Assembly: GCA_963809485.1 (NCBI GenBank)
Contig: CAWEJX010000006.1
Location: 160,001 to 224,000 of the forward strand
Direction of reading: 5' to 3'
From: an uncultured Acidobacteriota bacterium
Lineage (GTDB): Bacteria; Acidobacteriota; UBA6911
DNA length: 64,000 bases
The notes beneath the pieces are model-generated. The model was not told where the DNA came from. It searched no databases and worked only from the letters and a program-made list of their open reading frames with translations. Positions within the stretch are counted from its first letter, which is position 1; the number at the start of each line of letters is the position of its first letter. Below, in pieces: positions 2,049 through 32,839 of the stretch. The position numbers were made by a program, and so were the translations under genes.

Positions 2049-2056
2049 CTGGAAAC

Positions 2057-2101: not shown

Positions 2102-2111
2102 CGATGCAGTG

Positions 2112-16847: not shown

Positions 16848-16905
16848 AAAACGGGGACGCCCGCTCGAACGACCACAGCATTGAGCGACGCGTCCCCCGT
16901 TTTTT
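16848..16905 (+). terminator. Terminator-like hairpin
   Basis: aaaacggggacgc...gcgtcccccgtttttt. Confidence 0.6.
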
Positions 16906-17031
16906 GCAGGGCGGCAATCCCTCCTGCGTCGACCGAGCAACCGCGCGCTGCACGCGGATCCTGCCGATATCCGGACTGGAATTCATTCCATTCGTGCCTA
17001 TTCGTGGCTGATTTTTCTTTTCTGGAGAGGA

Positions 17032-18183: not shown

Positions 18184-18244
18184 AACAACCAGCCGCGAAT
18201 CGATGCAAATTTGGTATGAGTGAAACCGGCGGCACCATTTTGGG

Positions 18245-18457
18245 CTACGGGAAAATCAGCCTGTGAAGCCGGTGGAGGCAATAAATCAAAAACAGGATTT
18301 GTGCAGCAATTATGACCCGGTACAATGCCGGCTTTGGCCTTTTTGCAGCGCCGCTCGCCTCGGCTTGGGCTTTCATTTTGGGTATACCGAAGAGGATCTG
18401 ATATAAAACCCAGGCTCCCATACCGCAAAGCGCAACCAGGACCAGAATGAATTCCAT
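18245..18457 (-). CDS. Small two-TM membrane protein, last gene of the ESCRT-like cluster
   Basis: Two hydrophobic segments (MEFILVLVALCGMGAWVLYQILFG; VIIAAQILFLIYCL) around a basic loop. Confidence 0.55.
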   Translation of the reverse strand: MEFILVLVALCGMGAWVLYQILFGIPKMKAQAEASGAAKRPKPALYRVIIAAQILFLIYCLHRLHRLIFP

Positions 18458-18512
18458 AGATTTTGCACGGTAGAATCCTGCGGATCCTACCCCGGAATTG
18501 ATTGGCGCAAAC

Positions 18513-19937
18513 TCAGCCCGCAACCGGTGGAAGAGGCTTCACGGGAGTCTGGGCGGAGCGAGCCGACGTGATATCAATGGCACATTGGAAGTCATCAGGC
18601 TTCTCCAGAAGCAGTTCCATGCCTTGGGCTATGCATTCATCGAAGCTTTTAGGCACGCTGGCCGTGAATGTGGTCGAATTCATCGGAATCCAGTCGCCGC
18701 TCGATACCAGGGCCGCTGCAGCCCGATGATCGTGAAGGACAGGGCTGTTGAGCATTTTCTCCTGTGTCCACACGCCGAAGAAAGCATGACCCCGGATTAT
18801 GAAGACGAGAGGGTGAAGCCCTATTCTTTCCAGACACGATGCGCAAAGAACCGCAAGGTCGAGGCAGGTCCCGTGGCGATGCTCGAGTATCTGCTCGGGG
18901 AAAAAGATCTTTTGCCACAATGTAAAACTTCCGTCCGGCAGCTTTTCCCCCCGCTCGAAGCTGGCCGGAGGATTGATATAACCCAGCTGCAGGTCCTCCT
19001 GAAGAACCAGGTAGAGGGCTCCGATCATCTCGAGTGCTTTTTCGGGGCTTCCGCTCTGATAACCGCTCAGGCTGGCGTCGTGACGCTCGCGCCGAAGGCG
19101 TGCCTGTGCCAGGGAAACGATTTTTTCGACGGCAACAGAATTCGGTTGTACGAAGCAGGCGAGGGTTTGGGCAATAGCCGGGTGGTAATACCAGTCGTTA
19201 TAGGCAAGTACCTCAATGGGCAGGGTCTCGGAATACTGCAGGGAACCTTCCGTGTAGACATCCGCGCGCAACCCTGCTCTTTCAGCTTCGCGAACCTCCT
19301 GCAGCCGGCTCCTGTTCAGAGGGATCACGATATCAGATTCGGTGTGCGTGCCTCCCGGTGAGACAGAGGGCACGCTCTTCTGCCAGGGTTCGCCGTAATC
19401 AGGCGCCACCCAGGCTTTTATCAGAAGGTCGTGGGCAGGTTCCGCCGAGGTATTTCGGACAGCAAGGGAACGGATGAGCGGCAGCCCTGCGTGAGTCAGC
19501 GCATAGCTCAAGCGGGGAAGCATCTGAATCTGGACCTCAAGGTTGCGTGTTGTCACTTGTTCCAACGATGGACGCTGTACGGTTCGGGAAAGCCCGGCCG
19601 CGTCCGCTGCCGGCAGTCTGGATTCCGGAAATGCAGCGGGCGTGCCGCGATCCTGCCGGTCAGACATCTGGGTGCGGAAGTCGGGCAAGCCCGGCATGGA
19701 GCTGTCCAGATCCGAAATGGAGGAGTTTGCCTCGCGCAGGGCGTCAGACAACTCTCTCTGGATGTCCTTGAGGATACCGCTCCTCTGTTGCCGAAGCACG
19801 TCGCGCACTCCGTGCACGCTGCTCTGAAGGTTTTTGCTCTCTCCTTTTTCAGGGAGGGGGGCCGGCAGCGGTTTGCCGCAGTTCTGACAAAACTTTCCCC
19901 CGCCGCCTTCTTCGTTGCAGTTTGGGCATAAAGCCAT
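18513..19937 (-). CDS. Zinc ribbon + Ig-like + transglutaminase/papain-like domain protein
   Basis: CPNC...FCQNCG; YINPPASFE...QKI, GTCLDL (Cys), GHAFFGVW (His); resembles the N-terminal region of DUF4011/DUF3320 helicases; GAGGAGG RBS. Confidence 0.75.
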   Translation of the reverse strand: MALCPNCNEEGGGGKFCQNCGKPLPAPLPEKGESKNLQSSVHGVRDVLRQQRSGILKDIQRELSDALREANSSISDLDSSMPGLPDFRTQMSDRQDRGTPAAFPESRLPAADAAGLSRTVQRPSLEQVTTRNLEVQIQMLPRLSYALTHAGLPLIRSLAVRNTSAEPAHDLLIKAWVAPDYGEPWQKSVPSVSPGGTHTESDIVIPLNRSRLQEVREAERAGLRADVYTEGSLQYSETLPIEVLAYNDWYYHPAIAQTLACFVQPNSVAVEKIVSLAQARLRRERHDASLSGYQSGSPEKALEMIGALYLVLQEDLQLGYINPPASFERGEKLPDGSFTLWQKIFFPEQILEHRHGTCLDLAVLCASCLERIGLHPLVFIIRGHAFFGVWTQEKMLNSPVLHDHRAAAALVSSGDWIPMNSTTFTASVPKSFDECIAQGMELLLEKPDDFQCAIDITSARSAQTPVKPLPPVAG

Positions 19938-19960
19938 AATTCGCTGCCTCCTCTGTGGAC

Positions 19961-22018
19961 CTAATCGAAGAATTTGTGGCCGCAGTTTTCGCAGAATTTG
20001 CTGCCTTCAAGGGTTTCTGCGTGGCAATTCGGGCATACGGTCAGGCGTCCGCCCGAGCCTGAGGCGGACCCGGTCTGAACCATTCCACCTGCTCCCATGC
20101 CCGGAGTTATCACCGTCATCCCCGGCTGCGTGGCCCGCGTCGCCGCCATGGCAGTATCTCTCTGCGTTTCCATTCCCTTGGTGTACATTTCCTGCATCAT
20201 CTGGGCATACTGGCGGCTCATTTCCTTCAGGTCCGCCGTCCCCTGGTCCTTCATGGCCAGCATCCGGTCATAGACTCGCTGGATGTCCGCCGCCGAAGCA
20301 TTCTTGAACTTCTCCTGGAAAGCCTGTGCGACGGCGCCGCTTTTTTCGGCAGCCATGGCCAGGATCTGGTCTTCGCTGAATCCCTTGAGCGCTTCCGTGC
20401 GCTTGAGCTCCGCCAGCATCGCCGCCCGGTCTGCCGGTGCGGCGGCAATCAATGCCTCCGTCGACAAGGTGGATAGGGCCTGTATCTTTACCAGCTCCTG
20501 TTGGTGCCGTTGTGCTTCCGCTTTCATCTCGATTTCGGATACGCCGGCACGGGCCCGCAACTGACGCTCGATCTCCCGATCGGCATCCATCTGTTTTCTT
20601 TCCTTCATGAGATCCACCAGCTTCAGGCCGTCCGTTGCCTCCTGCATATCCAGCTCCTGTTCGGTCTGCCGCTCCAGGCGCTTTGCTTCAACCCGCTGCT
20701 TGATCGCCGCCCACTCCTGGGATTGGCGCGTCTCCATCTCCTTGCGGGATGCTTCCAGGCGGTGATCTAGCTGTGCCATTTCCTCGTCTCTCGTTGCATC
20801 CGTGATCGTGCGCTGCAAGGACAGCTTGCCAAGCATCTCGGCCTTCTGGAGCTCCGCCTGTTGCTCCAGCTTCAGCCGCTGTATCAGATGCTGGCGCAAT
20901 TGATCGTGATCTTCCTGTTTTTCGCTGAATTCACGCTGCAGCGTCTCATACTCGTCCTTGCGAAGGAACTTCTCCCTGTCCATTTCCATCATGAACTTCT
21001 CGAAATCGTCGTCGCTGCGGACTTTATCCATGCGATCGGATGCAACCGCCTTCCGCATCCGTTCGTAAACCCTGGCGCGCTCTTCGAACACATCCAGTTC
21101 CATGGCTGCCTTGGCGGTCTCCTGATCCAGGAGCTTGCGTTCGAGTCCGATGGTCTGGGCTCCCGCAAGCTGGGCCTCGAGGTCCTGGGCGTGCAGCCAG
21201 TATTCTTCCTTCTTTCCTGTCAATTCGTTCATGCGCGGATGCCGGAAATCAAAAATGCGCACATTGAGGAACGAAAGCCCTTTGCGGTCGAATGTTTTGG
21301 CCAGGTGCTGGGCGACGCCCTTTTCCATCTGCTGTTTGAAGGCAATGTCGGAGGAGAGCTCCAGCAAAGAGCGGCTCCGGATAAATTCCTGCAGGCAATT
21401 GTGCAGCTCCCCTTCCAGGAAGCTTTTGAGTTCGGCCAGCGGATAGTTTTGCCGGCTCTTCATCATGTTTTCGAAAAACTGCGTCGGATTGTCCATCTGC
21501 GCAACAAGGCGCGCATCGGCTGTAAGCCGGACCGGATCGCGCGTCAGCAGATCGGAAAACGAAAAAGGCAGCTCGATGTCGCCCGTATCGACCAGTACCG
21601 CCGTCGTAGTTTTCGAATTAAAGACATTCTTGATCTTTTGCAGCAGGCCGCCCATGTCATAGCGGCCCGGGTCAAGAATGCCCGATACCGCCCCGTTCAC
21701 GAAGAAAATGGCTTTCGTGCCGGCTTCAACAATCAGCCCACGTTTGAAGAATCCCTCGACATCGTCGACTTCCACTTTGGTAGCGAAGTCCTCGACTCGC
21801 CGGGCCCAACGATTGCCGGTCAGGGTGGGAGCGGCGCTTTCCGCGAGCGGCTTGCCGCAGTTGCCGCAGAACTTTTTATCTGCCGGAACCACGGCTCCGC
21901 AATTGTTGCACTTGATTTCCGATCCGGGCAGCCGTTCGCCGCAGCTTCCACAAAATCTGGAACCGGACTTGTTGGTGGCGTGGCATTTGGGACATTCGGT
22001 CTGAAATAATGGAACCAT
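19961..22018 (-). CDS. Double zinc ribbon + SPFH (band 7) + long coiled coil + C-terminal zinc ribbon protein
   Basis: CPKC/FCGSCG/CNNCG/FCGNCG; LIVEAGTKAIFFVNG...DPGRY; LLTRDPVRL; long E/K/Q/A-rich helical region; CPNC...FCENCG at C-terminus. Confidence 0.85.
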   Translation of the reverse strand: MVPLFQTECPKCHATNKSGSRFCGSCGERLPGSEIKCNNCGAVVPADKKFCGNCGKPLAESAAPTLTGNRWARRVEDFATKVEVDDVEGFFKRGLIVEAGTKAIFFVNGAVSGILDPGRYDMGGLLQKIKNVFNSKTTTAVLVDTGDIELPFSFSDLLTRDPVRLTADARLVAQMDNPTQFFENMMKSRQNYPLAELKSFLEGELHNCLQEFIRSRSLLELSSDIAFKQQMEKGVAQHLAKTFDRKGLSFLNVRIFDFRHPRMNELTGKKEEYWLHAQDLEAQLAGAQTIGLERKLLDQETAKAAMELDVFEERARVYERMRKAVASDRMDKVRSDDDFEKFMMEMDREKFLRKDEYETLQREFSEKQEDHDQLRQHLIQRLKLEQQAELQKAEMLGKLSLQRTITDATRDEEMAQLDHRLEASRKEMETRQSQEWAAIKQRVEAKRLERQTEQELDMQEATDGLKLVDLMKERKQMDADREIERQLRARAGVSEIEMKAEAQRHQQELVKIQALSTLSTEALIAAAPADRAAMLAELKRTEALKGFSEDQILAMAAEKSGAVAQAFQEKFKNASAADIQRVYDRMLAMKDQGTADLKEMSRQYAQMMQEMYTKGMETQRDTAMAATRATQPGMTVITPGMGAGGMVQTGSASGSGGRLTVCPNCHAETLEGSKFCENCGHKFFD

Positions 22019-22133
22019 GGCGAGTCTCCAAGATAGATGCTCAGTCCAACTGCAGCATGGAAACAGAGCAGTCATTTAATGGCCAGGGAACGAAAATTGA
22101 TGCAATCGAGCAAATACCCGTGGCCTGATATTA

Positions 22134-23744
22134 TCATGGCTTGAGCCCCTGTGTTCTTGGAATCTGAGGGATCCGCACAGTAATTTGGGCGGCGGAGCCT
22201 CCCAGCAATTCGATCGGCAGCGACCGGGAACCCAGAGGAAGCATGCTTGCCTCGCCCGGGCGAATTTCCTGCACCAGCCGGCGGCTTCCCGGCGAGCCCT
22301 GAACCTCAAAAAAAGCCTTGCAGGACGATTCTTTAAGCCAGAAAAAACCATGACGGCGGGTTCCTATGCGTGTGAGGCGGATGTGCCATAAATTTTCACC
22401 GTCAAAGCTCCGCCAGCCTTCTCCCACTTTCAAAGTGTGTTCCCCTTGCAGTCCCGCAAAAGGATCAAATATGGAAAACTCGATACCGCCATCGCGGGCA
22501 ATGGAGGATAGCACCTCCTCGGGCGCACGGAAGGGCTTCTGCCTGGCCTGAAGGATTCTCCGGATCTGCTCCCTTTCCTGAGGTGAAAAGGGTGAATTGG
22601 AAGAGCCGAGGACATTGCTTTCAAAGACCTCGCACAGCCTTGCGGTCAGTTCCTCGGAGCTCTGCTGCGAAATCATAGTATTTTCCAGCACCTGTTTCAG
22701 AATCAGATATTTTTTGCGGGAGATTTCGATCTTGCCTCGCAGCTCGTCAATCTCTTTCTGCTCCAGCTCCATGCGCAAGGTTTTCTCTTTGAGAGCCTGG
22801 TCTTTTTGCAGTGCGCGTACAACCTCATCAAAATGCTCTGCGTCCTCGATCTCGCGAAGTTTTCCCGCAAGGATCTCCTGGCGCCAGGCTCCGCGCAATC
22901 GGCTGATTTCCAATTCCGCTGCCAGTTTGCTCTTCTCCTGGGAAGCTTGTTCGAGTTTCTCATAAAGACTATCCAGGAATTCGCTGCGCAGCCTCGCCCG
23001 GAAAACTCGAACCAGTTCAAGCCCCGAATCCTCCGATGCCCTTGGGAGCCAGATGGATGCTTTTTCCATGCATGCGGATTCCATCCCCCGTGCCCCAACG
23101 ATGTCTTCACCGGAAAGTGAGGCCGCCCACTCTCGTGCCTCAGCCTGCAGGCCCTCGACGAGCTTGCCCCTGAATCCGGACGGCATCAGCGATGCGAGGT
23201 CTTGTGCAATGTCGATAAGCCTGTCCGGCCGCAATCGGAAGCACGCGTGGATCTGCAGGGAGAGCTGGCAATGGTCGGCGGCAAATAGGGGCTCGATGCA
23301 GAGTTCAAGCGGGAATTCGGCCTGGTTATACAGTACGGCCCTGGCATCGCTGTTGAGCCCTTTCCGGCCGGCAATCCTGTCGAGTGCTTTTGAACCATGT
23401 CGCCCGCCGGCAAGCCGCTCCTGAACGACGCATGCGTGCACAATCGCACATCGCCAGCCTTTGGGGACTACGAGGCCGCGTCTGGCTGTGTCCCACTCCA
23501 CCTGCCGAACAAGCGGTTCTTCCGCGGCGGAAACCCTTTGAGTCTCCTGCCTGGCTGCCTTCTCATCCTGCGGCCGCCCGGCTGTGGTCCCTCCAAAGCC
23601 GAAGATCTTCGCTGCCGGTTTCCGGATTTTTCGCGCAAAGCCGAGCAAAAGAGTAGTTGTAACGGCGCAGGTGAACGGTTTCCAGTAATCCCGTAGCCAT
23701 TCCAAAAGAGAAACCAGAAAGGAGCCCTCAGCCGGGAGTGCCAT
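22134..23744 (-). CDS. Membrane-anchored divergent SPFH-like coiled-coil protein
   Basis: N-terminal hydrophobic segment; RRGLVVPKGWRCAIV and AVLYNQAEFPLEL parallel the neighbouring SPFH domain; coiled coil; beta-rich C-terminus. Confidence 0.6.
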   Translation of the reverse strand: MALPAEGSFLVSLLEWLRDYWKPFTCAVTTTLLLGFARKIRKPAAKIFGFGGTTAGRPQDEKAARQETQRVSAAEEPLVRQVEWDTARRGLVVPKGWRCAIVHACVVQERLAGGRHGSKALDRIAGRKGLNSDARAVLYNQAEFPLELCIEPLFAADHCQLSLQIHACFRLRPDRLIDIAQDLASLMPSGFRGKLVEGLQAEAREWAASLSGEDIVGARGMESACMEKASIWLPRASEDSGLELVRVFRARLRSEFLDSLYEKLEQASQEKSKLAAELEISRLRGAWRQEILAGKLREIEDAEHFDEVVRALQKDQALKEKTLRMELEQKEIDELRGKIEISRKKYLILKQVLENTMISQQSSEELTARLCEVFESNVLGSSNSPFSPQEREQIRRILQARQKPFRAPEEVLSSIARDGGIEFSIFDPFAGLQGEHTLKVGEGWRSFDGENLWHIRLTRIGTRRHGFFWLKESSCKAFFEVQGSPGSRRLVQEIRPGEASMLPLGSRSLPIELLGGSAAQITVRIPQIPRTQGLKP

Positions 23745-23836
23745 ATATCCAGGTGCCTCTATTTGTCAGCCTTCGTTTTTGGATAGCGGCCGTTAACCAT
23801 CGTGATTTTGCCAAATGCTTCCTGGGAAGCCATGGG

Positions 23837-25048
23837 TCAGTTGCTTCGCGCGAATTCCTGAAAGCGGGATTCAAGCTTCCTGCCCCGCGCGGCATCCACA
23901 CGGATGCGATCGAATGCCGTATCAAAATCGTTTTTGTTGAGCGGACGCGTCCTGATCCGGTACCCCTGTATTTTCTCCCTGCCCCCGTCCACGCATCGAG
24001 GGATATCCCCGTTCAGGTCTTCCACCATGATGTTCACCGCCTGGTTCGTAAGCCTTTCAAGATCCCTCCCGCTAAACCATTCTGTACGCCTGACAATATC
24101 GTCGAGCGCATAATCCAGCGCATGTCCTTCCTTGAGGATCAGGATATCCAGGATGGACCGGCGGGCTTGATCGTCGGGAAGAGGAATGTAGATCCGTTTC
24201 TGGAACCGGCTCAGCACTGCGTCGTCAAGATCCCAGGGCGCGTTGGTGGCGGCGATGGTCAGAACGAAACGGTCTTCGCCCTTGTCGGCGAGGCCGTCCA
24301 GTTCCGACAGAATGGTGGACAATACCCTGCGCTCGGCTCCGGATTCGGAACCCTCTCCTCGCGGAAGGCAAAGGGATTCCACCTCGTCGATGAAGACAAC
24401 GGCGAAACCTTCATCCGCTTCGCTTCGCGCCGCATCGAAAAGAGCCGTGATCAGCTTGGACGATTCGCCAAAATATTTCGAAAGCAGACTGCCGGATTTG
24501 ACGTTGAAAAAGGTTGCACCAAGCCCGTTGCTGGTGGCGGCGGCAAGCAGCGTTTTTCCCGTCCCGGGCGGTCCGTAAAAAAGGATCCGGCGCCAGCCTT
24601 CGAGCTTCACTCCTTCGGGCTTCTGCGCAAGGGCAAGTCCGTAAGTGAATTTGATTTCCCGCTTGGTTTCCTCCAGTCCGCCGATCTGGTCCCAGGTTAC
24701 TTTGGACCGATGGATCATCGCCGCGATGTCGCGTGTGTATTCCCCGCGTTCTCCCGATTCCGGCTCCCGCAGGTCTTTGGGCGCAATCGGGGGCGACGGT
24801 TTCGCGGCGATCCTTCTTTTGCCTGATTTCAAGGCCTCGGCAATAGCAAGGTACTGCGCGGCTTTCTGCCTGCGCCGTTGCTCATCCTCACGCGTCAGCG
24901 CATAGTCGGCGTACGTTTTCATCAATTTGGCTGCTGCCACATAAGCAGCCGCGGCCTCAGCCCCATTGTTTTCCGCTTCCAGGGACCTTGCCTCAGCCAA
25001 AGCTTTATCGAGCGACATCTTCACGGCGCCGCTGAGATCGACCTTCAT
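23837..25048 (-). CDS. MIT-domain AAA ATPase, Vps4/CdvC/katanin-like (ATPase 2)
   Basis: N-terminal three-helix MIT-like region (AEAAAAYVAAAKLM...KAAQYLAIAEALK); VTWDQIGGL, WRRILFYGPPGTGKT, SKYFG, FIDE, ATNAPWDLD, SRFQKRIYIPLP. Confidence 0.88.
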   Translation of the reverse strand: MKVDLSGAVKMSLDKALAEARSLEAENNGAEAAAAYVAAAKLMKTYADYALTREDEQRRRQKAAQYLAIAEALKSGKRRIAAKPSPPIAPKDLREPESGERGEYTRDIAAMIHRSKVTWDQIGGLEETKREIKFTYGLALAQKPEGVKLEGWRRILFYGPPGTGKTLLAAATSNGLGATFFNVKSGSLLSKYFGESSKLITALFDAARSEADEGFAVVFIDEVESLCLPRGEGSESGAERRVLSTILSELDGLADKGEDRFVLTIAATNAPWDLDDAVLSRFQKRIYIPLPDDQARRSILDILILKEGHALDYALDDIVRRTEWFSGRDLERLTNQAVNIMVEDLNGDIPRCVDGGREKIQGYRIRTRPLNKNDFDTAFDRIRVDAARGRKLESRFQEFARSN

Positions 25049-25073
25049 GAATGACTCCCTTCACAGGCGAGGC

Positions 25074-25691
25074 CTATTCGTCCCGGACTTTTTCTGCCTT
25101 GATGGCCCGATTGATTTCCTCCTGATAGCGGTCGAGATCCTCTTCATCCGTGCCGCTTTCTTCTGCTTTTGCCATTTCCCCAATCGCCTTGTCGAACTGA
25201 GCGAACCCGGCGTCCTCCTTGACCTTGCCCCGGGTGACATCGATCTCCGCTTCACCCAGGATCTCCTCCAGCATATCCTGGAAAGCCTCGTCATCCACCT
25301 CGGCTGCGTCGATGGCCTTCTGGATGGAGCTTTCGCGGAAACGCACAATTATGTTCTGGAGGCTTTTGCGGTCCTTTTTCTTCTCCAGCATTTCCATTTT
25401 GCGCAGGAAAGAAGTCAGCGCAGTTTTTGAGAGCGACAGGCGGCGGAGATCCGTGTTGGTATAGCTGTTGTCGATCTCCAGCTGCCGCATCTCCCGGAAA
25501 AGGTCGCGCAGCAACTCCTGCTTTCCGGACCTCTTTGCCGCAACAGCTTCGCGGATCTTCTCCTGTTTGGTGCGCTCACTGACTTCCAGGTCGCGTCGTT
25601 TCTTCTTTTGTTCCCTGTCGATTTCCTTGAGCTGAACCTTGAGATCCGGGGCCGTTGGGGTTTTGCTGAAAAGACTGTTCCAGAAGTTCAT
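25074..25691 (-). CDS. ESCRT-III/Snf7-like protein 3
   Basis: 205 aa all-helical; amphipathic MNFWNSLFSK start; basic N-half with AKRSGKQE hairpin turn; acidic C-half; AAGGAG RBS. Confidence 0.72.
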   Translation of the reverse strand: MNFWNSLFSKTPTAPDLKVQLKEIDREQKKKRRDLEVSERTKQEKIREAVAAKRSGKQELLRDLFREMRQLEIDNSYTNTDLRRLSLSKTALTSFLRKMEMLEKKKDRKSLQNIIVRFRESSIQKAIDAAEVDDEAFQDMLEEILGEAEIDVTRGKVKEDAGFAQFDKAIGEMAKAEESGTDEEDLDRYQEEINRAIKAEKVRDE

Positions 25692-25741
25692 GATCTGTTC
25701 TCCTTTGCGTGATACGGTAACTTGGGGACCTGTGTATGCTT

Positions 25742-26353
25742 CTATTCCAGGTCGGCCTCTTTGTGTGTCCGCGGCGGCCGCTCCCGGCTGCTTTCCGGTC
25801 CTGGTCCGATGATTCGATTTTTGATTTCAGCCAGACGCTTTCGTTCGGCGGAATTGTTGACCGCCTCGGGCATCTGTGCGGTATTCTCGCCCGCGAGGCT
25901 CTCCCTTTTGTAAATTTCCAGGTTTTCCTCCACCTCTCCGATGAGCCGGTCAATCTGGTCTTCACTGACGCCGCGCGAGCGCATCGCCTCCATTTCCTGA
26001 ATTTTCGCGATCAGGTTGATGTGGAAATTTACATTCCCGTTATAAATACCTACCAGTTTCTCCAGGCTGTCGCGCTGGTTGCCGTAGCGCTCAATCCGAC
26101 GCAGGATGGTTGCCTCTTCCGTCGGAGAAAGCCCGCCTTTGCGGATCCTGTCCTCTTCCAGGAGCAGGGACTTTTCGAGCGCGATCAGCTGATCCTCGTG
26201 CTCCCTCAGTTCCATTTCATTCCTGCCCCGCTGCGCTTCCAGGCCCTTGAGCAGCTCGCGGGAATTCGCGGCCTTCAGGTATATATCCCGGGCATCATCG
26301 GGAACTTCAGCTCTTTGAAACAGGTTTTTCAGCTTGTCCATGACAGATAGCAT
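25742..26353 (-). CDS. ESCRT-III/Snf7-like protein 2
   Basis: 203 aa; amphipathic MDKLKNLF; helical hairpin around KGG; EDQIDRL helix; MIM1-like RLAEIK near the C-terminus; GGAGG RBS. Confidence 0.62.
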   Translation of the reverse strand: MLSVMDKLKNLFQRAEVPDDARDIYLKAANSRELLKGLEAQRGRNEMELREHEDQLIALEKSLLLEEDRIRKGGLSPTEEATILRRIERYGNQRDSLEKLVGIYNGNVNFHINLIAKIQEMEAMRSRGVSEDQIDRLIGEVEENLEIYKRESLAGENTAQMPEAVNNSAERKRLAEIKNRIIGPGPESSRERPPRTHKEADLE

Positions 26354-26362
26354 AGCGCCTCC

Positions 26363-27091
26363 CTAGTGTGCCGTTCTTTGTATCGCAAATCTTCCTTTGT
26401 GTTCGATGATTTGATAGCGCCCCTGGGAGGTTTCCACAGCTTCCTGCAAACCCGGGCGGCTGAGATGAAAATCAACGAGAAACGCATCCAGCGGGACTTG
26501 TCCGCCGGGGAAAAGCAAATCCGGGGCGGTGTTCATCGCTTTTTCAGCGCGTGTTCTTTCCTCTTCTGCCGTTTCCGGATTAAACAGATTTTTCCACGGA
26601 CCCTCACTGCCGAAAACCTGCCAGGCCGTTCCTTCAAAATGCTCCACGAGGTAGAAATGGATGTCGCTTCGATCAGGGGCATGGATCTTCCATGATTCCG
26701 GCCACCCTACGGGAGAATAGACTCCTATGCCGTGGGGGATGCCTTCCCTAATGTCGAGCCCCAAAGGGCCGGAAATTTGCTCCAAAAGGTTGTCGGCAGG
26801 GCGGAGCAGATCCTTTTCGCCCGTCAGCCCTGTGCCTTTGAGAGCGATGGCTGCCAGGCATAGACGGATCCGTTTAAGCAGACCGCTGCCAAATACAAAT
26901 CGCCGGACGTCGCCGAAGACTCTCTGCGGGGTTTGAACCTGAATTCCGGGGTCCGGGCGTATGATCTCGCCGGCTGAGGGGACTGCAATCTCGCGGCACG
27001 ATCGAACCTTCAGTTCGAAACGGCTCAGAAAGGCATCGCCAAGTCGTGTCTTTCCGTTAACGTCGCTTGTGTATGGATTCATCGGATTCAT
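26363..27091 (-). CDS. Hypothetical protein, possible C-terminal winged-helix domain
   Basis: Start overlaps the upstream ATPase stop (ATGA); C-terminal helices then beta hairpin RYQIIEHKGRFAIQR. Confidence 0.6.
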   Translation of the reverse strand: MNPMNPYTSDVNGKTRLGDAFLSRFELKVRSCREIAVPSAGEIIRPDPGIQVQTPQRVFGDVRRFVFGSGLLKRIRLCLAAIALKGTGLTGEKDLLRPADNLLEQISGPLGLDIREGIPHGIGVYSPVGWPESWKIHAPDRSDIHFYLVEHFEGTAWQVFGSEGPWKNLFNPETAEEERTRAEKAMNTAPDLLFPGGQVPLDAFLVDFHLSRPGLQEAVETSQGRYQIIEHKGRFAIQRTAH

Positions 27092-28221
27092 GCCGGTCCA
27101 CCGCCTTTGGCGAACTTTTTGTAGCGTTCCAGCATTGAAGGTGTAACCGACGGCGCCACCTCCGAAATTGCCCGTCTGACATCCTGGAGCGTCAGGACGG
27201 CCTCAGCGCCGCTGCGTATCTGACGCTGAAATGGAAAGTCCGTAGCTTTGATGCACACACCCACGATATCGGCTCCGCTGTAGCCTTCCAGGGAGCCGGC
27301 GACTTCATGCAAATCGATTCCGGGATCCATGGGTATGCCATCGAGGTTCAGGTGCAATATCTGCTCCCGGGCTTCGGCATCCGGAAGACCGATATAGAAT
27401 TTCTCGCCGAAGCGGCCTGTGCGAAGCGCTGCCTCATCCAAATCCCACGGACGGTTCGTGGCGCCCATCAGCAAAAGGCAGTTGGTGTTCGAATTCAGCC
27501 CGTCGACCTGGGAAAGGAATTCGGGGACTACGCGGTTCATCACCGTGGAGTTGCCACCGCGCTTGCCGACCAGCGCTTCTGTTTCATCCAGGAAAACGAT
27601 GGAGACCGGATAGCGCCGCGCCACGTCAAACAGCCGCGCGAGGTTTTGCTCGGCCACTCCCACCCACTGAGACATGATGCTGGAGCATTTCACGCTGAGA
27701 AACCGGGCATCCAGCTCGGTCGCGACGGCTTTGGCGATCATGGTTTTACCGGTTCCCGGAGGGCCGTAGAGCAGGATGCCGCCGCCCGCCCTCTTTTTAA
27801 ATCGATGGGCTGCATCCGGATGGCGAAAGGGATATAGGACGCGCAGATCGATAGCTTCTTTTACGGATTTCAGGCCCGCAATCTGATCAAACCGGATGTC
27901 CGGCTTTTCCGAGACTATCCATTTATCCTCCGGCGTCAGGTGATCATCCGCTTCCCTGGGCGATGCCGTCTGGAGTCTGCTTTGGTCCGCCCCCCGTTTG
28001 GGTGAGATTTGCTGCAGCGGAAGGCCGAAGGCCATATCGCGCAGGCGCAGGCTCTTTTCCCATCGGATTCGCTTCAGGCTGCCATCCGAATTCCGGGCTG
28101 CTTTGAGCAGGTATTTGGCGGCACGCAGCAGATGAATGCGAGCCCGGGCTTTATCTCCGGCTGTAAGATAATCGATACCCTGATCCTTGTTTTTTTCGTA
28201 TTGATCCAGGTAGAACTGCAT
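27088..28221 (-). CDS. MIT-domain AAA ATPase, Vps4/CdvC-like (ATPase 1)
   Basis: N-terminal three-helix region; IVSEKPDIRFDQIAGL, GILLYGPPGTGKT, SQWVG, FLDE, ATNRPWDLD; C-terminal PSVTPSMLERYKKF like the Vps4 C-helix. Confidence 0.9.
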   Translation of the reverse strand: MQFYLDQYEKNKDQGIDYLTAGDKARARIHLLRAAKYLLKAARNSDGSLKRIRWEKSLRLRDMAFGLPLQQISPKRGADQSRLQTASPREADDHLTPEDKWIVSEKPDIRFDQIAGLKSVKEAIDLRVLYPFRHPDAAHRFKKRAGGGILLYGPPGTGKTMIAKAVATELDARFLSVKCSSIMSQWVGVAEQNLARLFDVARRYPVSIVFLDETEALVGKRGGNSTVMNRVVPEFLSQVDGLNSNTNCLLLMGATNRPWDLDEAALRTGRFGEKFYIGLPDAEAREQILHLNLDGIPMDPGIDLHEVAGSLEGYSGADIVGVCIKATDFPFQRQIRSGAEAVLTLQDVRRAISEVAPSVTPSMLERYKKFAKGGGPA

Positions 28222-28252
28222 GGGAGCTGATCCGCGATGGCAAGCGGACTCC

Positions 28253-28855
28253 TTATTTTTGTTCCTTGTTCAGTTCCTCTTCAATGTCGGCAATGTCTTT
28301 GTCAATCTGATCATCAATCCCCTTGCGCTCCTCGTGAGCCACTTCCTCTTCAAGCATCTTCTCGATATCGCGATCACTTACCAGCTCCTCCTCGGAGCTT
28401 CCCTCGTAACCGAACATCGACTCCGATGTGGTTTCCAGGAAAGCATCCATGCGCTCTTCGATGCTTTCGGCCTTGGACATGGCCTTTTCAAAATTCACCT
28501 GGGTTTTGGCCATGTCCGTGGACCCGAAAACCTCGGCGATCGACTTGGAGAAAGCGTTCATAGCCTTGGCAAAATCGTAATGGCCTTCGGCCTGGTCCTT
28601 TAGTTGTGTGGCGGATTCCAGCGCCAAAAGCTGGCGTTCGAGCCGGATTTTGATGGTTGCTGTCTTTTTGATGGCCTTTTTAAGGAATTCATATTGATTC
28701 GTCCAGCCCAGCTTGCGCGCCCGCTTTGCTTTTTCGATGTAATCCAGTTCGTATTTCTCGTTGGCCTTGAGCTGACGCCGGATTTGGGTTAACGCCTTGC
28801 GCACCTGGATGTTTCGCTCGATTCGCCTTTCCTCTTTGGACTTGAAGAGACTCAT
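28253..28855 (-). CDS. ESCRT-III/Snf7-like protein 1 (Vps2/Vps24/Did2-like)
   Basis: 200 aa; MSLFKSK start; very basic helices 1-2 with ARKLG turn; QVNFEKAMSKAESIEERMD recalls CHMP2/3 helix 4; acidic tail. Confidence 0.82.
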   Translation of the reverse strand: MSLFKSKEERRIERNIQVRKALTQIRRQLKANEKYELDYIEKAKRARKLGWTNQYEFLKKAIKKTATIKIRLERQLLALESATQLKDQAEGHYDFAKAMNAFSKSIAEVFGSTDMAKTQVNFEKAMSKAESIEERMDAFLETTSESMFGYEGSSEEELVSDRDIEKMLEEEVAHEERKGIDDQIDKDIADIEEELNKEQK

Positions 28856-28996
28856 GCCTGGCCCCTTTCTTAAATCTTTTTGCGAGCTGCTTCCTGAACC
28901 CTGATCCCGGACTTGAGGAAGTGATCCCGGAGATCCTGCCTTGGCGGATAGCCGCGGAACCAGACTCTCCGCCGACAGGCTAATCGCCCGGGATTT

Positions 28997-29260
28997 TTAA
29001 AGCCATGTATGACCTTCCGAGCACTGGTGGGAGGAATAATGGCCTTGCGTCAGACAACAAGCGCGCAGGCAAGCCGGGCAGGCGTAGGCGCATTGGGTCG
29101 TATTGTCCATGATTCCCGTTGCGCCTGCCGGCGTGCCGTCCTTCGTTCTCTCCTTTGAAGCGCCGGATCCTGAAATTCTCTCAATTTCACCCTGTGTTTC
29201 TTTCAGCTTTTTGCTGATCTCTGCCTTAATCCTTTCCAGGTCGTCCTCGATGGTTCCCAT
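28997..29260 (-). CDS. Small coiled-coil plus Cys/His zinc-finger protein
   Basis: N-terminal amphipathic helix; C-x3-C-x2-C-x3-CC-x4-H-x3-H-x-C-x3-H-x-W; GAGG RBS. Confidence 0.7.
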   Translation of the reverse strand: MGTIEDDLERIKAEISKKLKETQGEIERISGSGASKERTKDGTPAGATGIMDNTTQCAYACPACLRACCLTQGHYSSHQCSEGHTWL

Positions 29261-29356
29261 AGCCGCATCCTCGGGTGGGGATAATTTTCGGATTTCAACA
29301 CCTGCCTGCTTGATCCAGCCCCGGGCGATAGAGACGGAGTGCCTGACTCCATCGGC

Positions 29357-30358
29357 TCAGGGAAGAGTAGCGTTCAACCGCTGCAGCAGCATATCTGTGA
29401 TTTTGCGAACATCGGCGGCGCCCCGCCCATAATCCAGCAGTTGAGGAATTTTCCTGCTGCTGGAAATGTGTATCGTAAAGCCTTCGGGGAGGGGGTGGAT
29501 CGTCGCCGAAATCGTCTGCCCGTAGGTCTGCCAGTTCCAACCGGTGCTGCCTCTAAGAGTCCGGGCGTTCGAATCCCACAGCAAATTCTTCGCTCCATAG
29601 GATTGGAAGACTTCCTCGATGATGGTTATGAGCTTCTGCTCGGGCAGATTGGTTTTTAGTATTCCTTCACCCATAAGCTGAACCATTGGCGGTTTTTGTT
29701 CTGCAGCGGGCTGATCTTGCTTTTCCGTGGGTTGCCGGGAACTCTGCCGCTTGGGATACATTTCGTGGTCGAGGCTCAACGCTTCCATACGTCGGCGCTC
29801 CATTTCGGCCCGGCGATTCTCGTCGTCCGATTTCCGACGATTTTCCTCTGCCAGCCGCAGTTTCTCCGCCTTGAGCACTTCCACTTCTTTTCGCGCTCTT
29901 TCGGCGGATGCGCAATGCTGGCAGCAGTTCAGTTCCTCATCCCGGTGGCGCACGCATATCCAGTCGCGATTGCATCGAAGACAACGGAAACTGGTGCTCC
30001 TTTCGGCGTATCCTCCACAGATGGGGCATACGGCTTGGGAGGCATGGGATTCCGGCGCGTGCGGTATGCCGATAATAATGTTGCCGACTTGTGCTCCCGC
30101 GTGGGAGTTATGAGTCGAGGCGTCGATATTTCCCTTGAGAATTCCGATATCGCCGGCGCGAAATCCTCCCGGGGCCTGCTGAGAAGCTCCCGTATCCTGT
30201 TCCGATAACAGAAAAGCGCATTCGGAGCAAAACCTCGCTCTTCCCTCTATTTTACTGCCGCAGTTGGGACACAGCCGCTCCTGGGCCAGAGGCTTTCCGC
30301 AATTTTCGCAAAACCTGCCTTCCCCGCCCTCCTGGTTGCATTGAACACAGATAGCCAT
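29357..30358 (-). CDS. Double zinc ribbon + B-box-like finger + coiled coil + C-terminal helix-grip-like domain protein
   Basis: CVQC/FCENCG/CPNCG/FCSEC; CPICG...CLRC...CVRH...CCQHC; E/R coiled coil; GWNWQTYGQ...QLLDYG. Confidence 0.75.
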   Translation of the reverse strand: MAICVQCNQEGGEGRFCENCGKPLAQERLCPNCGSKIEGRARFCSECAFLLSEQDTGASQQAPGGFRAGDIGILKGNIDASTHNSHAGAQVGNIIIGIPHAPESHASQAVCPICGGYAERSTSFRCLRCNRDWICVRHRDEELNCCQHCASAERARKEVEVLKAEKLRLAEENRRKSDDENRRAEMERRRMEALSLDHEMYPKRQSSRQPTEKQDQPAAEQKPPMVQLMGEGILKTNLPEQKLITIIEEVFQSYGAKNLLWDSNARTLRGSTGWNWQTYGQTISATIHPLPEGFTIHISSSRKIPQLLDYGRGAADVRKITDMLLQRLNATLP

Positions 30359-30837
30359 TGAAAATCCCTCGCAATGACGGTCGTCGCCGGAGCCGGGTAC
30401 GATCCTGACTATGCTGCCGCGAGCTGAACTATATAATCCGAACGGGCTTTTCGTTTCTCTCTATAATAAACTTCATGAAATGCCGAAATGCCTTGGACTT
30501 GGGCCGATTATACACCCGTCCTCATCGCCGGGAAATGCTCTTCAGGGATTGCAGGCACATTTGCATTCTTTTCTCGGCCCTGCGCCGATGTCCCCGTCGC
30601 AGAGTCTTTTCATAGGTCTCTGCTGCATCAACGGCGCCATACACGAAGTGGAAGCAATTCCCGATCCATACCCCCAATCTGAATTGACTGTTTGATCCGA
30701 GTATCGCGGAGAGCGTATACGTGCTGGCGACACGGATATTTGACAACGCCGATAATGGCGCTGACGAAGGCTGCAAATCAGGTTGAAGCCCGGCTCTTCC
30801 GGTCTCGCCCATCCAATGAAAGGAACCTCATCAGCCG

Positions 30838-32266: not shown

Positions 32267-32497
32267 ATTGGTAAACCGGCTCTGCCGGGGGACTCAAAGA
32301 GTTTGACAGCTCCGTATTTTGAAACGCCGAGAAACGCTGATAAAAGCGCTGACAAACACCGATTTGTTCGGCGGGGATCGGAAACGCCTCATCGGCTTTT
32401 GCCCGCGTAAGTCAGCGTTCAAGACCGGCGTAACTTCTCCAACCGCTTTGAGCGGTTCAAATTTTTCAAGCCTCCGGCTTTGCCGGAGCTACCTGAC
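32267..32497 (+). mobile_element. IS200/IS605-derived non-autonomous element (copy C)
   Basis: Follows TTAC; same ends and core as copy B; keeps only the right arm of B's inner palindrome. Confidence 0.8.
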
Positions 32498-32545
32498 TCG
32501 TGATTTCTCCTAACGTCTCCGGCCCTTGCGACCGATTGAACACAC

Positions 32546-32839
32546 ATGAACAGGCGAAATCGAGCCCGGTTTAAAACCGACCTGACAGCCCATGTGACCC
32601 TCGCCGGCCTTTCAGGCGCAACCTTCAAGGGAAGGCTGGCGGACCTTTCGGTCCACGGTCTCAGTTTGATCCTGAGCATGGAACTGCCGATTGGTTCCCG
32701 CGTCAAGGTCGAATGGGGGAACACCACATTTGAAGGGGAATCGATTTACTGCCGGAACCAGGGCAAAGAATATCTTGTGGGACTAAAGGTCGACGCCGCC
32801 GTTTATGCCGCCACGAAAAACCTTCGTCCCGTTCAATAG
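32546..32839 (+). CDS. PilZ domain protein
   Basis: RRNRAR (RxxxR) and DLSVHG (DxSxxG). Confidence 0.85.
   Translation: MNRRNRARFKTDLTAHVTLAGLSGATFKGRLADLSVHGLSLILSMELPIGSRVKVEWGNTTFEGESIYCRNQGKEYLVGLKVDAAVYAATKNLRPVQ

Follow-up and report, generated by a model that had tools for sequence, protein, structure and literature searches.

Gene content and organisation of the island

The analysed DNA (the window, a stretch of 64,000 nt from an uncultured Acidobacteriota bacterium) contains 12 open reading frames at positions 18245–30358, all on the minus strand (Table 1), which are separated by intergenic distances, calculated from the coordinates in the order g01 to g12, of 96, 141, 31, −4, 9, 50, 25, 92, 58, 23 and −11 nt. 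A first-pass annotation, made from the sequence alone, had described this region as 12 co-directional genes, which the ORF coordinates confirmed, and its order of domain types was right for g01, g04, g08, g10 and g11, judged by Pfam, and for g12, judged by hydrophobicity. By its predicted products, the region is an accessory island of a soil bacterium, in which a Snf7-type ESCRT-III gene is combined with genes for two Vps4-like ATPases and for SPFH partners.

Table 1. Positions of the island, its genes and the adjoining genes in the window
Feature	Position	Strand	Length	Remark
g01	29357-30358	-	333 aa	
g02	28997-29260	-	87 aa	
g03 (E3a)	28253-28855	-	200 aa	
g04 (AAA1)	27088-28221	-	377 aa	
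g05	26363-27091	-	242 aa	
g06 (E3b)	25742-26353	-	203 aa	
g07 (E3c)	25074-25691	-	205 aa	
g08 (AAA2)	23837-25048	-	403 aa	
g09	22134-23744	-	536 aa	
g10	19961-22075	-	704 aa	
g11	18513-19937	-	474 aa	
g12	18245-18523	-	92 aa	TTG start
Whole accessory island	18184..30837		12.7 kb	everything between two conserved flank genes
Flank gene	17032-18183	+		conserved
Flank gene	30838-32145	-		conserved

Flanking regions and integrity of the assembly

The flanks encode a sigma-54 response regulator, two TolC-family outer-membrane proteins and a citramalate synthase, and the GC content was 0.54–0.58 in the cluster and 0.53–0.59 in the window; both the ordinary bacterial flanks of similar base composition and the diderm bacterial chromosome of the first-pass annotation were hereby verified. 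An empty site was located in a same-genus genome (G290, contig C191), where the two flank genes lie ~55 bp apart; using blastn, this genome was collinear with the window on either side of the island, with the segment 18122–31117 missing. Direct or inverted repeats bordering the island were not seen. The left junction was bridged by independent soil contigs from two metagenome runs, and read depth was alike on flanks and island. The cluster is not a misassembly, because of the empty site in the same-genus genome and the soil contigs bridging the left junction; together with the similar depth and the collinearity, this left no sign of chimerism. Members of the genus can do without the island, which is therefore not the division machine of the cell.

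The Snf7-family protein g03

The product of g03, encoded directly upstream of AAA1, is classed as a Snf7-family ESCRT-III protein and as the core subunit. This assignment rests on the family, for which 190 homologues were found, because the sequence from the window itself scores only E = 3.4 in one search with the Pfam Snf7 model and 0.077 in another. The model was matched by 21 of 39 aligned relatives (best 6.5e-8), the matches of the family spanning nearly its whole length (positions about 5–157). In 401 Planctomycetota genomes, 48 of the 68 Snf7-model matches fell inside g03 orthologues, as did all five matches above the Snf7 cut-off. Profile searches against the PDB gave yeast Snf7 as the two best matches (0.018–0.019) and CHMP2A as the third (0.056). 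The AlphaFold2 model, of modest confidence (pLDDT 69.8), consists of helices at residues 7–49, 52–110, 115–148 and 161–199, and the ten best-ranked Foldseek matches obtained with it were all ESCRT-III proteins, each of them at E > 0.001. The N-terminal half has a pI of 10.1 and the C-terminal half a pI of 4.2.

The ATPases g04 and g08

For both ATPases the sequences support a Vps4 layout, i.e. a three-helix MIT-like N-domain, a single AAA cassette and a Vps4_C-type C-terminal signal. AAA1 comprises the N-domain (residues 2–65), a disordered linker (72–92), one AAA cassette (Pfam AAA 1e-36, plus AAA_lid_3), a lid and a Vps4_C-type C-terminal helix, with a classical R-x-G-R-F in the second region of homology. 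Its AlphaFold2 model (pLDDT 87.3) shows the N-domain as a confident three-helix bundle, and the N-terminal profile matched 2mpk_A best in the PDB (0.0025). AAA2 has an N-domain of the same kind, a linker and one AAA cassette (Pfam AAA 1.5e-34); the six best PDB matches of its N-terminal profile were MIT domains of VPS4B/SKD1 (1.6e-4 to 3.1e-3), and the two N-domains are homologous to each other (hhalign, 95.4%). CdvC was the best NCBIfam model for both, at 213.8 bits for AAA1 and 174.3 bits for AAA2, each below the cut-off of 650 bits. Two adjacent arginines are typical of Vps4-like ATPases. AAA2 lacks the first of them and carries Ser instead, its second region of homology reading L-S-R-F-x-K, with S280, R281 and F282 unchanged in all 28 members of the family.

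The Vps4_C tail was detected in AAA1, where it scored 23.1 bits, above the cut-off and as the only such match in the 6-Mb genome, and in orthologues of both ATPases, 11 matches above cut-off being located on that side of E3a where AAA2 lies. Of the 48 Vps4_C matches in the Planctomycetota sample, 29 shared the strand of a g03 orthologue and were no more than 4 kb away from it, and 34 of 40 genomes with Vps4_C also carry g03. The AAA modules are equally near to Cdc48-D2 and to spastin/katanin, and AAA1 alone is closest to Cdc48/p97 D2, which was also the top Foldseek match of its ATPase module; for AAA2, the first single-AAA protein among the PDB matches was katanin p60-like 1 (171.8 bits), and the C-terminal profile scored about 57–58 bits for p97 D2 and 59–60 bits for spastin/katanin. 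The Pfam MIT model found no match in the two ATPases of the window; in two sets of N-domains of relatives it matched 3 of 31 and 1 of 24, and TPR_2 matched 11 of 31 and 6 of 24. The label MIT-AAA therefore stands as to the MIT-like N-domains, the single cassette and the Vps4_C-type signal, but not as to a match with Pfam MIT, nor is the AAA1 module nearest to Vps4.

The conserved partners g05, g06 and g07

The genes g05, g06, g07 and g08 recur together in relatives. By homology, g05 encodes a conserved partner, present in 18 of 70 loci using tblastn and with homologues in 31 loci after BLASTP clustering; its earlier label as a winged-helix protein found no support in Pfam or PDB profiles, which stayed blank for the family apart from one weak GntR match (0.064) in one of 10 members.

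The proposal of three ESCRT-III-like proteins held for g03, on the Pfam matches of its relatives, the PDB profiles and Foldseek, but g06 and g07 were not tied to ESCRT-III. Conserved as a protein of ~200 aa in 27 of 70 loci, g06 gave 0.5–0.7% with E3a in hhalign, one Pfam Snf7 match among 22 family members (0.0077) and no precomputed Pfam family in any of 73 homologues; PspA_IM30 was its nearest named Atlas cluster (0.82), to be read as a lead, and its halves show no charge asymmetry. The conserved g07, directly upstream of AAA2, was found in 16 of 70 loci (tblastn) and has a homologous second family of ~200 aa (hhalign, 95.4%), encoded in 13 loci upstream of AAA2. With E3a, g07 gave 3.4–13.5% in hhalign, Pfam Snf7 matched none of 16 family members, and two of 30 Atlas matches were clusters with Snf7 on 16% of their members (score 0.94). 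The size of g07 and its distribution of charge, with a pI of 10.0 in the N-terminal half and 4.5 in the C-terminal half, are similar to those of ESCRT-III proteins. PDB profile searches with g06 and g07 returned nothing, and no sequence method tried connects the two to g03 or to each other.

Zinc-ribbon, SPFH and small proteins

The protein g10 is identified by its domains as a zinc-ribbon SPFH protein, in agreement with its earlier DZR-SPFH label (Pfam Band_7 57.2 bits, cut-off 23.6; DZR 55.9; Zn_Ribbon_1 63.2), with a double zinc ribbon, the SPFH/Band_7 domain, a long charged coiled region and a C-terminal zinc ribbon in this order; it shares 64% identity with its homologue in the related locus L003. 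Its neighbour g09, with relatives among the loci in L003 only, has no Pfam family and probably represents a diverged paralogue of g10 with SPFH and coiled-coil parts (hhalign, 78.5%, E 1.7e-5; residues 76–320 on 95–373 of g10), followed by a C-terminal domain without a named fold. Of the label TM-SPFH, the SPFH part is hence likely, but the transmembrane part was not retained, no 19-residue window having a mean Kyte–Doolittle value > 1.6.

The protein g11, earlier called zinc-ribbon peptidase-like, proved to be a predicted zinc-ribbon transglutaminase-fold (papain-like) protein with the ribbon at the N-terminus. Residues 144–470 aligned to positions 1–313 of the 1903 of NCBIfam NF058533 (4.7e-76; 256 bits, far under the 1500-bit cut-off), the domain being common to the N-terminus of the protein that NCBI names anti-phage ProA, and the transglutaminase-like Pfam DUF553 matched weakly (0.0059). 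C358, H384, D415 and the four zinc-ribbon cysteines are kept in both of two sequences, and the Cys-His-Asp triad is apparently intact.

In g01, an N-terminal double zinc ribbon (Pfam DZR 7.7e-6 and Zn_Ribbon_1 2.1e-5, each slightly below its cut-off) is followed by a middle part rich in Cys, a charged coiled segment and a C-terminal domain without a named fold. Relatedness of the zinc ribbons in g01, g10 and g11 extends to the DNA sequence. Neither g01 nor the small g02, with its Cys/His-rich C-terminus, is conserved in relatives; g01 is island-specific (one of 70 loci, tblastn) and unrelated to its positional counterpart in L003. Among the contig pieces listed, those of X1, X2 and X4 were mostly missing from the g02 region (28857–29285), and X7 covers 28676–29057; g02 varies between strains. 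Profile searches gave no family match for g02 and g12. The predicted gene g12 encodes two hydrophobic segments by Kyte–Doolittle (residues 21–48 and 65–84), as expected from its annotation as a small transmembrane protein.

Occurrence in other bacteria

Other bacteria have the core arrangement in 70 loci at species level; it is therefore not due to chance. One or both ATPases are encoded in 63 of these loci, and both in 28; 33 of 52 AAA1 genes start −100 to +150 nt from the end of the g03 ORF. The distribution among phyla is patchy: Planctomycetota had the core in 74 of the 401 genomes sampled, the phylum of the window in only two of 401, and g03 was present in none of three same-genus genomes. 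The accessory genes, among which are kinases and TPR proteins, differ from one related locus to another. Relatives were not found in viral contigs.

Comparison with known systems

Passages of reviews from 2024–2025 describe such systems as absent from bacteria, and the island's Snf7 protein, Vps4-like ATPases and SPFH proteins form the very combination which these reviews deny to bacteria. A 2024 paper does, in part of its text, link bacterial Snf7/PspA with AAA+ ATPases.

The island resembles the Euryarchaeota ESCRT systems ('Main', Halo_FHA, Meth_adaptin), as treated in passages of Makarova et al. 2024 (PMC10936438), in an ESCRT-III gene directly upstream of that of a MIT-type single-cassette AAA ATPase, in extra conserved proteins encoded upstream and in a non-essential, patchy distribution; Ser/Thr kinases occur there in some loci (Main and FHA types), as they do in the related bacterial loci, and the SPFH–coiled-coil–zinc-ribbon architecture is likewise known from archaeal ESCRT loci. 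In contrast, the host of the island is bacterial, there are two different ATPases to a locus, searches of the island revealed neither an adaptin-appendage or FHA protein nor a recognised wH protein, two of its three ~200-aa proteins were not tied to ESCRT-III, its ATPases score far under the CdvC equivalog cut-off (214 and 174 vs. 650 bits), and the lineage of the window adds the transglutaminase-fold protein.

With Cdv (CdvA/CdvB/CdvC) and eukaryotic ESCRT-III/Vps4, the island shares the pairing of a Snf7-family subunit with a Vps4-like ATPase, the best fold matches of g03 being CdvB, CHMP and Snf7 and those of the AAA2 N-domain the MIT of VPS4B. Unlike crenarchaeal Cdv, it is without CdvA, and it is no division system, being absent from same-genus genomes. 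Set against Cdv/Vps4, it is a prediction here that the N-domain binds the tail, AAA1 has a Cdc48-like second region of homology, and in AAA2 the first arginine is replaced by Ser.

Bacterial PspA/Vipp1, with the SPFH partner YdjI, is likewise an ESCRT-III-superfamily protein encoded with SPFH proteins and likely serves membrane maintenance; however, g03 belongs to Snf7 rather than PspA_IM30, and the island has dedicated MIT-like AAA ATPases, where PspA systems are described in review passages as being without a Vps4-like ATPase (PMC7619361). Ravi et al. 2024 (PMC11237479) report, in part of their text, VPS4-like ATPases transferred to bacteria; in their example a TPR-6TM protein replaces snf7, and their Snf7/PspA operons contain either an AAA+ ATPase with two domains or parts of an ABC transporter. 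Main-text passages of that paper do not mention the SPFH-linked system of several subunits and two ATPases or its frequency in Planctomycetota; with the supplements there may be overlap.

Proposed function and alternative readings

The island probably encodes a bacterial ESCRT-III/Vps4-type machine of two gene-adjacent sub-modules, g03–g04 and g05–g08, whose biological role may be conditional membrane remodelling or repair, vesicles and defence being further candidate roles. In this model, g03 would polymerise on the inner membrane from the cytoplasmic side via its basic N-terminal half and an N-terminal M-x-L-F motif, and its acidic C-terminal tail would be bound by the N-domain of the AAA1 hexamer, which would thread the g03 subunit through its pore, whereby the polymer is remodelled or recycled. 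g06 and g07 may be additional polymer or adaptor subunits serviced by AAA2; the SPFH proteins could, by analogy with PspA, form a membrane microdomain or cage localising the polymer, and the shared zinc ribbons may gather the parts of the island together.

A different role for the same core mechanism, that of an inducible anti-phage or stress-defence island, is possible, though clearly less probable. The zinc-ribbon proteins, g11 and, elsewhere, the kinases would act as sensors or effectors, leading to membrane remodelling, repair or abortive infection. The accessory character of the island (the empty site, its absence from the three same-genus genomes, two of 401 genomes in the phylum), the patchiness across phyla, the domain shared with 'anti-phage protein ProA' and the variable accessory genes, kinases and TPR proteins among them, are consistent with defence. 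On the other hand, PADLOC returned only generic AAA matches (IetA, TRIP13) and left the remaining ten proteins without a match, the island was not seen to adjoin any known defence genes, relatives were not found in viral contigs, no literature on ProA was found, and the presence in 74 of 401 Planctomycetota genomes would fit a housekeeping accessory as well.

It is unlikely that the ATPases are generic Cdc48-like AAA+ unfoldases, with the coiled-coil neighbours as adaptors or substrates, a merely structural Snf7 likeness of g03 and no membrane remodelling. The proximity of the AAA1 module to p97 D2, the similar scores of AAA2 for p97 D2 and spastin/katanin, the generic helical appearance of g06 and g07 in every search and the N-domain matches, more often to TPR_2 than to MIT, point in this direction; against it stand the specificity of the g03 family for Snf7 over nearly the whole model, the VPS4B MIT matches of the AAA2 N-domain, the linkage of Vps4_C to g03 and the membrane association of SPFH partners. 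A canonical PspA/Vipp1-type envelope stress operon is improbable to a much greater degree: the nearest named Atlas cluster of g06 and the known SPFH partners of PspA, mentioned in passages of PMC10936438, would suit it, but Pfam PspA_IM30 finds a single gene genome-wide, an unrelated one outside the island (contig C15), the g03 family matches Snf7 instead, and PspF, PspB and PspC are absent, in line with the first-pass annotation, which had set the island apart from canonical PspA. Misassembled or contaminant archaeal DNA, which an estimated contamination of the assembly of 7.3% and the archaeal-looking gene content might suggest, is for practical purposes refuted by the collinearity of the same-genus genome with both flanks, the even GC throughout the window, the bridged left junction with similar depth, and the origin of the 71 related loci, which come from bacterial genome bins of several phyla.

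Genomic context and origin of the island

Open reading frames were called across the window, and twelve genes (g01–g12) were placed on the minus strand at 18245–30358 with spacings of −11 to 141 nt, in the positions and the order that the first-pass annotation had given. The host genome (6.04 Mb in 21 contigs, estimated 95.7% complete with 7.3% contamination; window on contig C6) was compared with a 98% complete genome of the same genus, G290, in which the left flank gene had a match at 78% identity and the right flank gene had matches at 54–55%, both on one contig and about 55 bp apart. By blastn, window and G290 were collinear on both sides at 66–82% identity, with one 53-nt match at 91%, and window positions 18122–31117 were missing. 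Since the flank genes are adjacent in G290 and this stretch is missing there, the twelve genes are an accessory insertion of approximately 12.65 kb. No attachment-site-like or flanking repeats were found at the island ends, no tRNA gene was found in the window and no integrase was seen by the island; screening of the whole window against Rfam returned no RNA genes, and promoter-like and terminator-like sites were no commoner than in shuffled sequence. Among RNA data sets none was listed for the locus, from which nothing follows about its expression.

The flank genes are bacterial and the window is even in base composition, as had been proposed from the sequence alone. With the TolC subfamily model the two TolC-family products (633 and 626 aa) both stayed well under the cut-off. 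A gene for an IS1380-family transposase (204 bits, over cut-off) lies 12 kb from the island with no evident link to it.

An archaeal segment joined to the contig by misassembly was excluded for practical purposes by the collinear flanks in G290, similar depth on flanks and island and bridging contigs. Contigs from soil and wetland metagenomes with at least 90% identity (most 90–99%) covered flanks and island at similar depth, which was 8–24 in the runs X1, X2 and X4 across bins 16851–31658, except for 4.6 in X4 in the bin over g01 (29191–29807). The left junction was bridged by two contigs (X1, 17251–19406; X2, 17805–19850). For the right junction (30316–30769) no bridging piece was present among the contig pieces listed, which is not evidence of a break. 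The coverage check for chimerism suggested earlier thus came out in favor of the assembly, and the locus is genuine and bacterial.

Coordinates of features in the window and in related loci (window positions unless a locus or genome is named)
Feature	Coordinates	Remarks
Accessory insertion	18184–30837	island with g01–g12
g01	29357–30358	upstream-most gene
g12	18245–18523	last gene
35-nt zinc-ribbon repeat, copy in g11	19862–19896
35-nt zinc-ribbon repeat, copy in g10	21841–21875
35-nt zinc-ribbon repeat, copy in g10	21925–21959
35-nt zinc-ribbon repeat, copy in g01	30283–30317
Strain-variable stretch	28857–29356	upstream of g03
Repeat element, about 230 nt	32270–32500	outside island
IS1380-family transposase gene	5000–6253
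Two TolC-family outer-membrane proteins, tandem genes	34214–37992	flank of island; bacterial
Sigma-54 response regulator		flank of island; bacterial
TrpB-like enzyme		flank of island; bacterial
Glutamate synthase		flank of island; bacterial
Malic enzyme		flank of island; bacterial
Citramalate synthase		flank of island; bacterial
Ser/Thr kinase	L006:12568–14052	with zinc ribbon and DnaJ_C-like domain
Ser/Thr kinase	L052:14145–16118	with RDD domain
Ser/Thr kinase	L053:10610–12010
Conserved protein, about 280–340 aa	L003:9042–9956	example; adjoins core
Snf7-model and Vps4_C pair	G672:C95:2086–3737	Planctomycetota genome

The Snf7-family protein g03

Homologues of g03 (n = 190) were collected, and Pfam Snf7 (PF03357) was matched at E ≤ 0.01 by 21 of 39 aligned relatives, the best at 6.5e-8. 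Across 401 Planctomycetota genomes, all five Snf7 matches over the curated cut-off (5/5) lay inside g03 orthologues, and 48 of 68 Snf7-model matches did so. The family profile searched against the PDB gave yeast Snf7 and CHMP2A as best matches. Membership of g03 in the Snf7 family was shown in this way at the level of the family, the window's own protein being sub-threshold against Pfam Snf7 (E 3.4 in one search, 0.077 in another). The AlphaFold (AF2) model had the long-hairpin helix pattern expected of ESCRT-III, but at a pLDDT of 69.8, and the ten best-ranked Foldseek matches were all ESCRT-III proteins (CHMP2A/3, Loki CHMP4-7, CHMP1B, CdvB, CHMP3 and Snf7 among them), but with a best E of only 0.021. 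A basic N-terminal and an acidic C-terminal half are a hallmark of ESCRT-III, and the halves of g03 have pI values of 10.1 and 4.2. A canonical PspA/Vipp1 identity of the island proteins was rejected, PspA_IM30 (PF04012) matching one gene in the whole genome, on contig C15, and neither g03 nor any other gene of the island.

The two ATPases, AAA1 (g04) and AAA2 (g08)

In domain layout, AAA1 and AAA2 were both shown to carry a helical N-domain (about 70 residues), then a variable linker and one AAA stretch each (Pfam AAA, 1e-36 and 1.5e-34); over the aligned AAA region they are 35% identical. Their family alignments keep G-P-P-G-T-G-K-T, D-E and the pore-loop motifs S-K-W-V-G / S-K-Y-F-G-E-S, and both are single-cassette AAA proteins with Walker A/B and an aromatic pore loop.

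The N-domains are homologous to each other (hhalign 95.4%), and residues 1–70 of AAA1 were modelled as a three-helix bundle (block pLDDT 92–98). Searched against the PDB, the AAA2 N-terminal profile returned VPS4B/SKD1 MIT domains as its six best matches, from 1.6e-4, and the AAA1 profile returned 2mpk_A (0.0025; entry title "Chitin synthase 1"), which we take to be a MIT domain. Pfam MIT matched neither ATPase of the window, and in the N-domains of relatives it matched 3/31 and 1/24, TPR_2 matching more. For the MIT fold that the first-pass annotation had wanted checked on both N-termini, the evidence points both ways, the VPS4B/SKD1 structures found with the AAA2 profile speaking for it and the Pfam model on the window's proteins against it.

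Vps4_C (PF09336) was matched by AAA1 at 23.1 bits (cut-off 21.3), the only such match in the genome; AAA2 of the window had none, but orthologues of it did. In the 401 Planctomycetota genomes, matches over cut-off near g03 orthologues fell on the AAA1 side in 18 cases and on the AAA2 side in 11; of 48 matches, 29 lay within 4 kb of g03 on the same strand, all over cut-off, and g03 was present in 34 of the 40 genomes that had Vps4_C. In a control of 14 genomes Methanocaldococcus also gave a match, which means that the model is not confined to partners of ESCRT.

Among NCBIfam models CdvC (NF041006) scored best with both ATPases, and because they reached 213.8 and 174.3 bits against a cut-off of 650, AAA1 and AAA2 are, judged by these scores, not orthologues of crenarchaeal CdvC. 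In structure, the AAA1 ATPase module was nearest to p97/Cdc48 D2, and the fold matches of the full AAA1 model come through its AAA module. The first single-AAA PDB match was Vps4 for AAA1 and katanin for AAA2, and with the AAA2 C-terminal profile p97 D2 and spastin/katanin scored alike; since two-cassette p97 entries fill most of the PDB tables, these are of little use for ranking the ATPases. With AAA2 as query, the representative search gave orthologues together with multi-cassette proteins, the scores of the latter being summed. Taken as proxies for the clade of AAA1 and AAA2, CdvC, p97 D2, Vps4, katanin and spastin gave a mixed result. Complex prediction with AAA1 residues 1–72 and g03 residues 140–200 (score 0.01, mark 0.32) speaks neither for nor against binding.

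Related loci and their distribution

A scan with one genome per species yielded 71 loci, 70 of which entered synteny analysis. By record title, most belong to Planctomycetota, the closest to the window to Acidobacteriota, and single loci were found in Sumerlaeota, Hydrogenedentes, a "Proteobacteria" bin and Christensenellaceae. Tight linkage of g03 to the ATPases was shown across these bacteria, as the first reading had suggested looking for: among the 70 loci, many of them cut by contig ends, at least one ATPase was present in 63, an AAA1-type in 51, an AAA2-type in 40 and both in 28. The other components were recovered in fewer loci, g06 in 27, g07 in 16 (with a homologous family in 13 further loci) and g05 in 18 by tblastn or 31 by clustering. 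The nearest Acidobacteriota locus has the order g03-g04-g05-g06-g07-g08-g09-g10-g11, and Planctomycetota loci the order g05-g06-g07-g08-g03-g04. Presence of g03 was recorded in 74 of 401 Planctomycetota genomes sampled. For the window's own phylum the figure was only 2 of 401, one of the two being the genome of the window, and none of three same-genus genomes had it. Among viral contigs, 519 pattern matches were obtained, none of them a relative.

Accessory genes vary between loci; among their products are TPR proteins, a protein of about 300 aa and Ser/Thr kinases, one of which has a zinc ribbon. Kinase genes lie inside or beside the core in three loci (L006, L052 and L053), and the window's island has no kinase. 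The conserved protein of about 280–340 aa, with no Pfam match, adjoins the core in 16 loci. In the three Acidobacteriota loci and L031 it is encoded upstream of g03, most of the remaining loci have it downstream of AAA1, and the window lacks it. In the Planctomycetota genome G672, Snf7-model and Vps4_C matches are separated by 1.2 kb on one strand where the g03 profile had no match at 1e-10, possibly a further-diverged form of the Snf7/Vps4_C pair.

Partner proteins g05, g06 and g07

The proteins g06 and g07 are conserved and about 200 aa each. Profile comparison linking g03, g06 and g07 failed with small and large alignments alike (hhalign against g03: g06, 0.5% and 0.7%; g07, 13.5% and 3.4%), and PDB profile searches with g06 and g07 gave no ESCRT-III match. 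Pfam Snf7 was matched by 1 of 22 g06 members and 0 of 16 g07 members, and a precomputed Pfam family was assigned to none of 73 listed g06 homologues and none of 120 listed g07 homologues. With two protein-atlas leads as the sole exception, no sequence method tried ties either protein to g03, to the other or to Snf7/PspA. The halves of g07 (pI 10.0 and 4.5) have a charge asymmetry as in g03, and those of g06 (pI 5.5 and 5.3) do not. At the start of all three proteins stands a short hydrophobic motif of the M-x-x-[LF]-F type, which resembles the N-termini of ESCRT-III proteins. Of the three ESCRT-III paralogues counted in the first-pass annotation, g03 stands, at family level, and the inclusion of g06 and g07 went too far. 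The winged-helix label given there to g05 was likewise an overstatement: g05 is conserved, and PDB profile and Pfam searches with it gave no match.

SPFH, zinc-ribbon and membrane partners

Pfam Band_7 (PF01145) was matched by g10 at 57.2 bits (cut-off 23.6), and the protein is ordered as a double zinc ribbon, SPFH domain, coiled region and C-terminal zinc ribbon, in agreement with the zinc-ribbon SPFH partner described before; the transmembrane SPFH protein described beside it was overstated. Across the SPFH region g09 aligned with g10 (hhalign 78.5%, E 1.7e-5); without a Pfam match of its own, g09 is probably a divergent paralogue of g10. The product of g11 combines a zinc ribbon with a transglutaminase-fold domain, with conserved candidate Cys-His-Asp residues, and g12 encodes two hydrophobic segments. 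The domain of g11 is common to the N-terminus of NCBI's "anti-phage ProA" (NF058533), and assignment to that family was rejected, the match covering profile positions 1–313 of 1903 only and reaching 256 bits against a cut-off of 1500; literature searches for "ProA" turned up only proline-biosynthesis or probiotic papers. A 35-nt repeat coding for zinc ribbon occurs in four copies, 66–77% alike in DNA, which suggests a common, duplicated zinc-ribbon module.

Interpretation and comparison with described systems

A bacterial Snf7/Vps4-like system is the likely reading of the locus. By analogy with ESCRT-III/Vps4, g03 would polymerize on membrane and the ATPase N-domains would recognize its tail; by analogy with SPFH-PspA, the SPFH proteins might recruit the machine. 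The dispensability of the island favors a conditional function, be it repair, vesicle formation or defence, over one in cell division. A wider proposal, of which we are rather doubtful, is a complete ESCRT-like machine in bacteria, with g03, g06 and g07 as polymer, two Vps4-like ATPases, g05 as adaptor and SPFH scaffolds, frequent among Planctomycetota (roughly a fifth of species-level genomes) and with enough mobility to have entered Acidobacteriota and further phyla. If this were true, the ESCRT-SPFH-kinase link would predate or cross the divide between archaea and bacteria, and the system might serve the unusual membrane invagination and uptake of Planctomycetota.

The closest described systems are the euryarchaeal ESCRT loci of Makarova et al. 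2024 (PMC10936438), in which ESCRT-III lies upstream of Vps4 and is accompanied by wH proteins, SPFH-coiled-coil-zinc-ribbon proteins and kinases; the kinases of the related bacterial loci parallel these. PMC10936438 and a 2025 review describe bacteria as being without such systems or without a Vps4-like ATPase, and in the wording of PMC7619361 the ATPase "appears absent in bacteria". Ravi et al. 2024 (PMC11237479) report transfers of VPS4-like ATPases to bacteria. Literature searches returned no description of a system with two ATPases such as this one, nor of how often it occurs in Planctomycetota, and among the listed papers naming both ESCRT and Planctomycetota none had a title on a bacterial ESCRT/Vps4 system; the supplements of PMC11237479 and PMC10936438 may list overlapping loci.

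A Snf7-family gene tightly linked to MIT-like, Vps4_C-bearing AAA ATPases in an ordinary bacterial chromosome opens several questions to testing: how ESCRT-III and a partner ATPase operate in cells that have peptidoglycan and an outer membrane, whether the ESCRT-III-Vps4 pairing, with its SPFH and kinase links, moved from one domain to another or has an earlier origin than supposed, and what such a machine does as an accessory and not a division system. In practical terms, small, bacterial and probably easily expressed proteins would become available for mechanistic work on ESCRT-III remodelling.

Strain variation upstream of g03 and a repeat element

Conservation does not extend to the upstream genes g01 and g02. 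Three metagenome runs have contigs from related strains that end at 28856 (start of g03), and in the same contigs 29286 (or 29282) is joined to 32488 with 8–11 extra letters; the stretch upstream of g03, g02 included, therefore varies between strains, and it may hold inside it a copy of the repeat element found outside the island. For this element, 40 copies were listed of 472 first-look candidates in its own genome, with 88–100% identity and the window copy included. No Rfam family was matched by it. Summed depth of soil and wetland metagenome contigs reached 1100–4000 in bin 32276–32892, where sharp loose ends fall at 32276 and 32498; the repeat is possibly MITE-like, or else a multi-copy RNA that has yet to be described.
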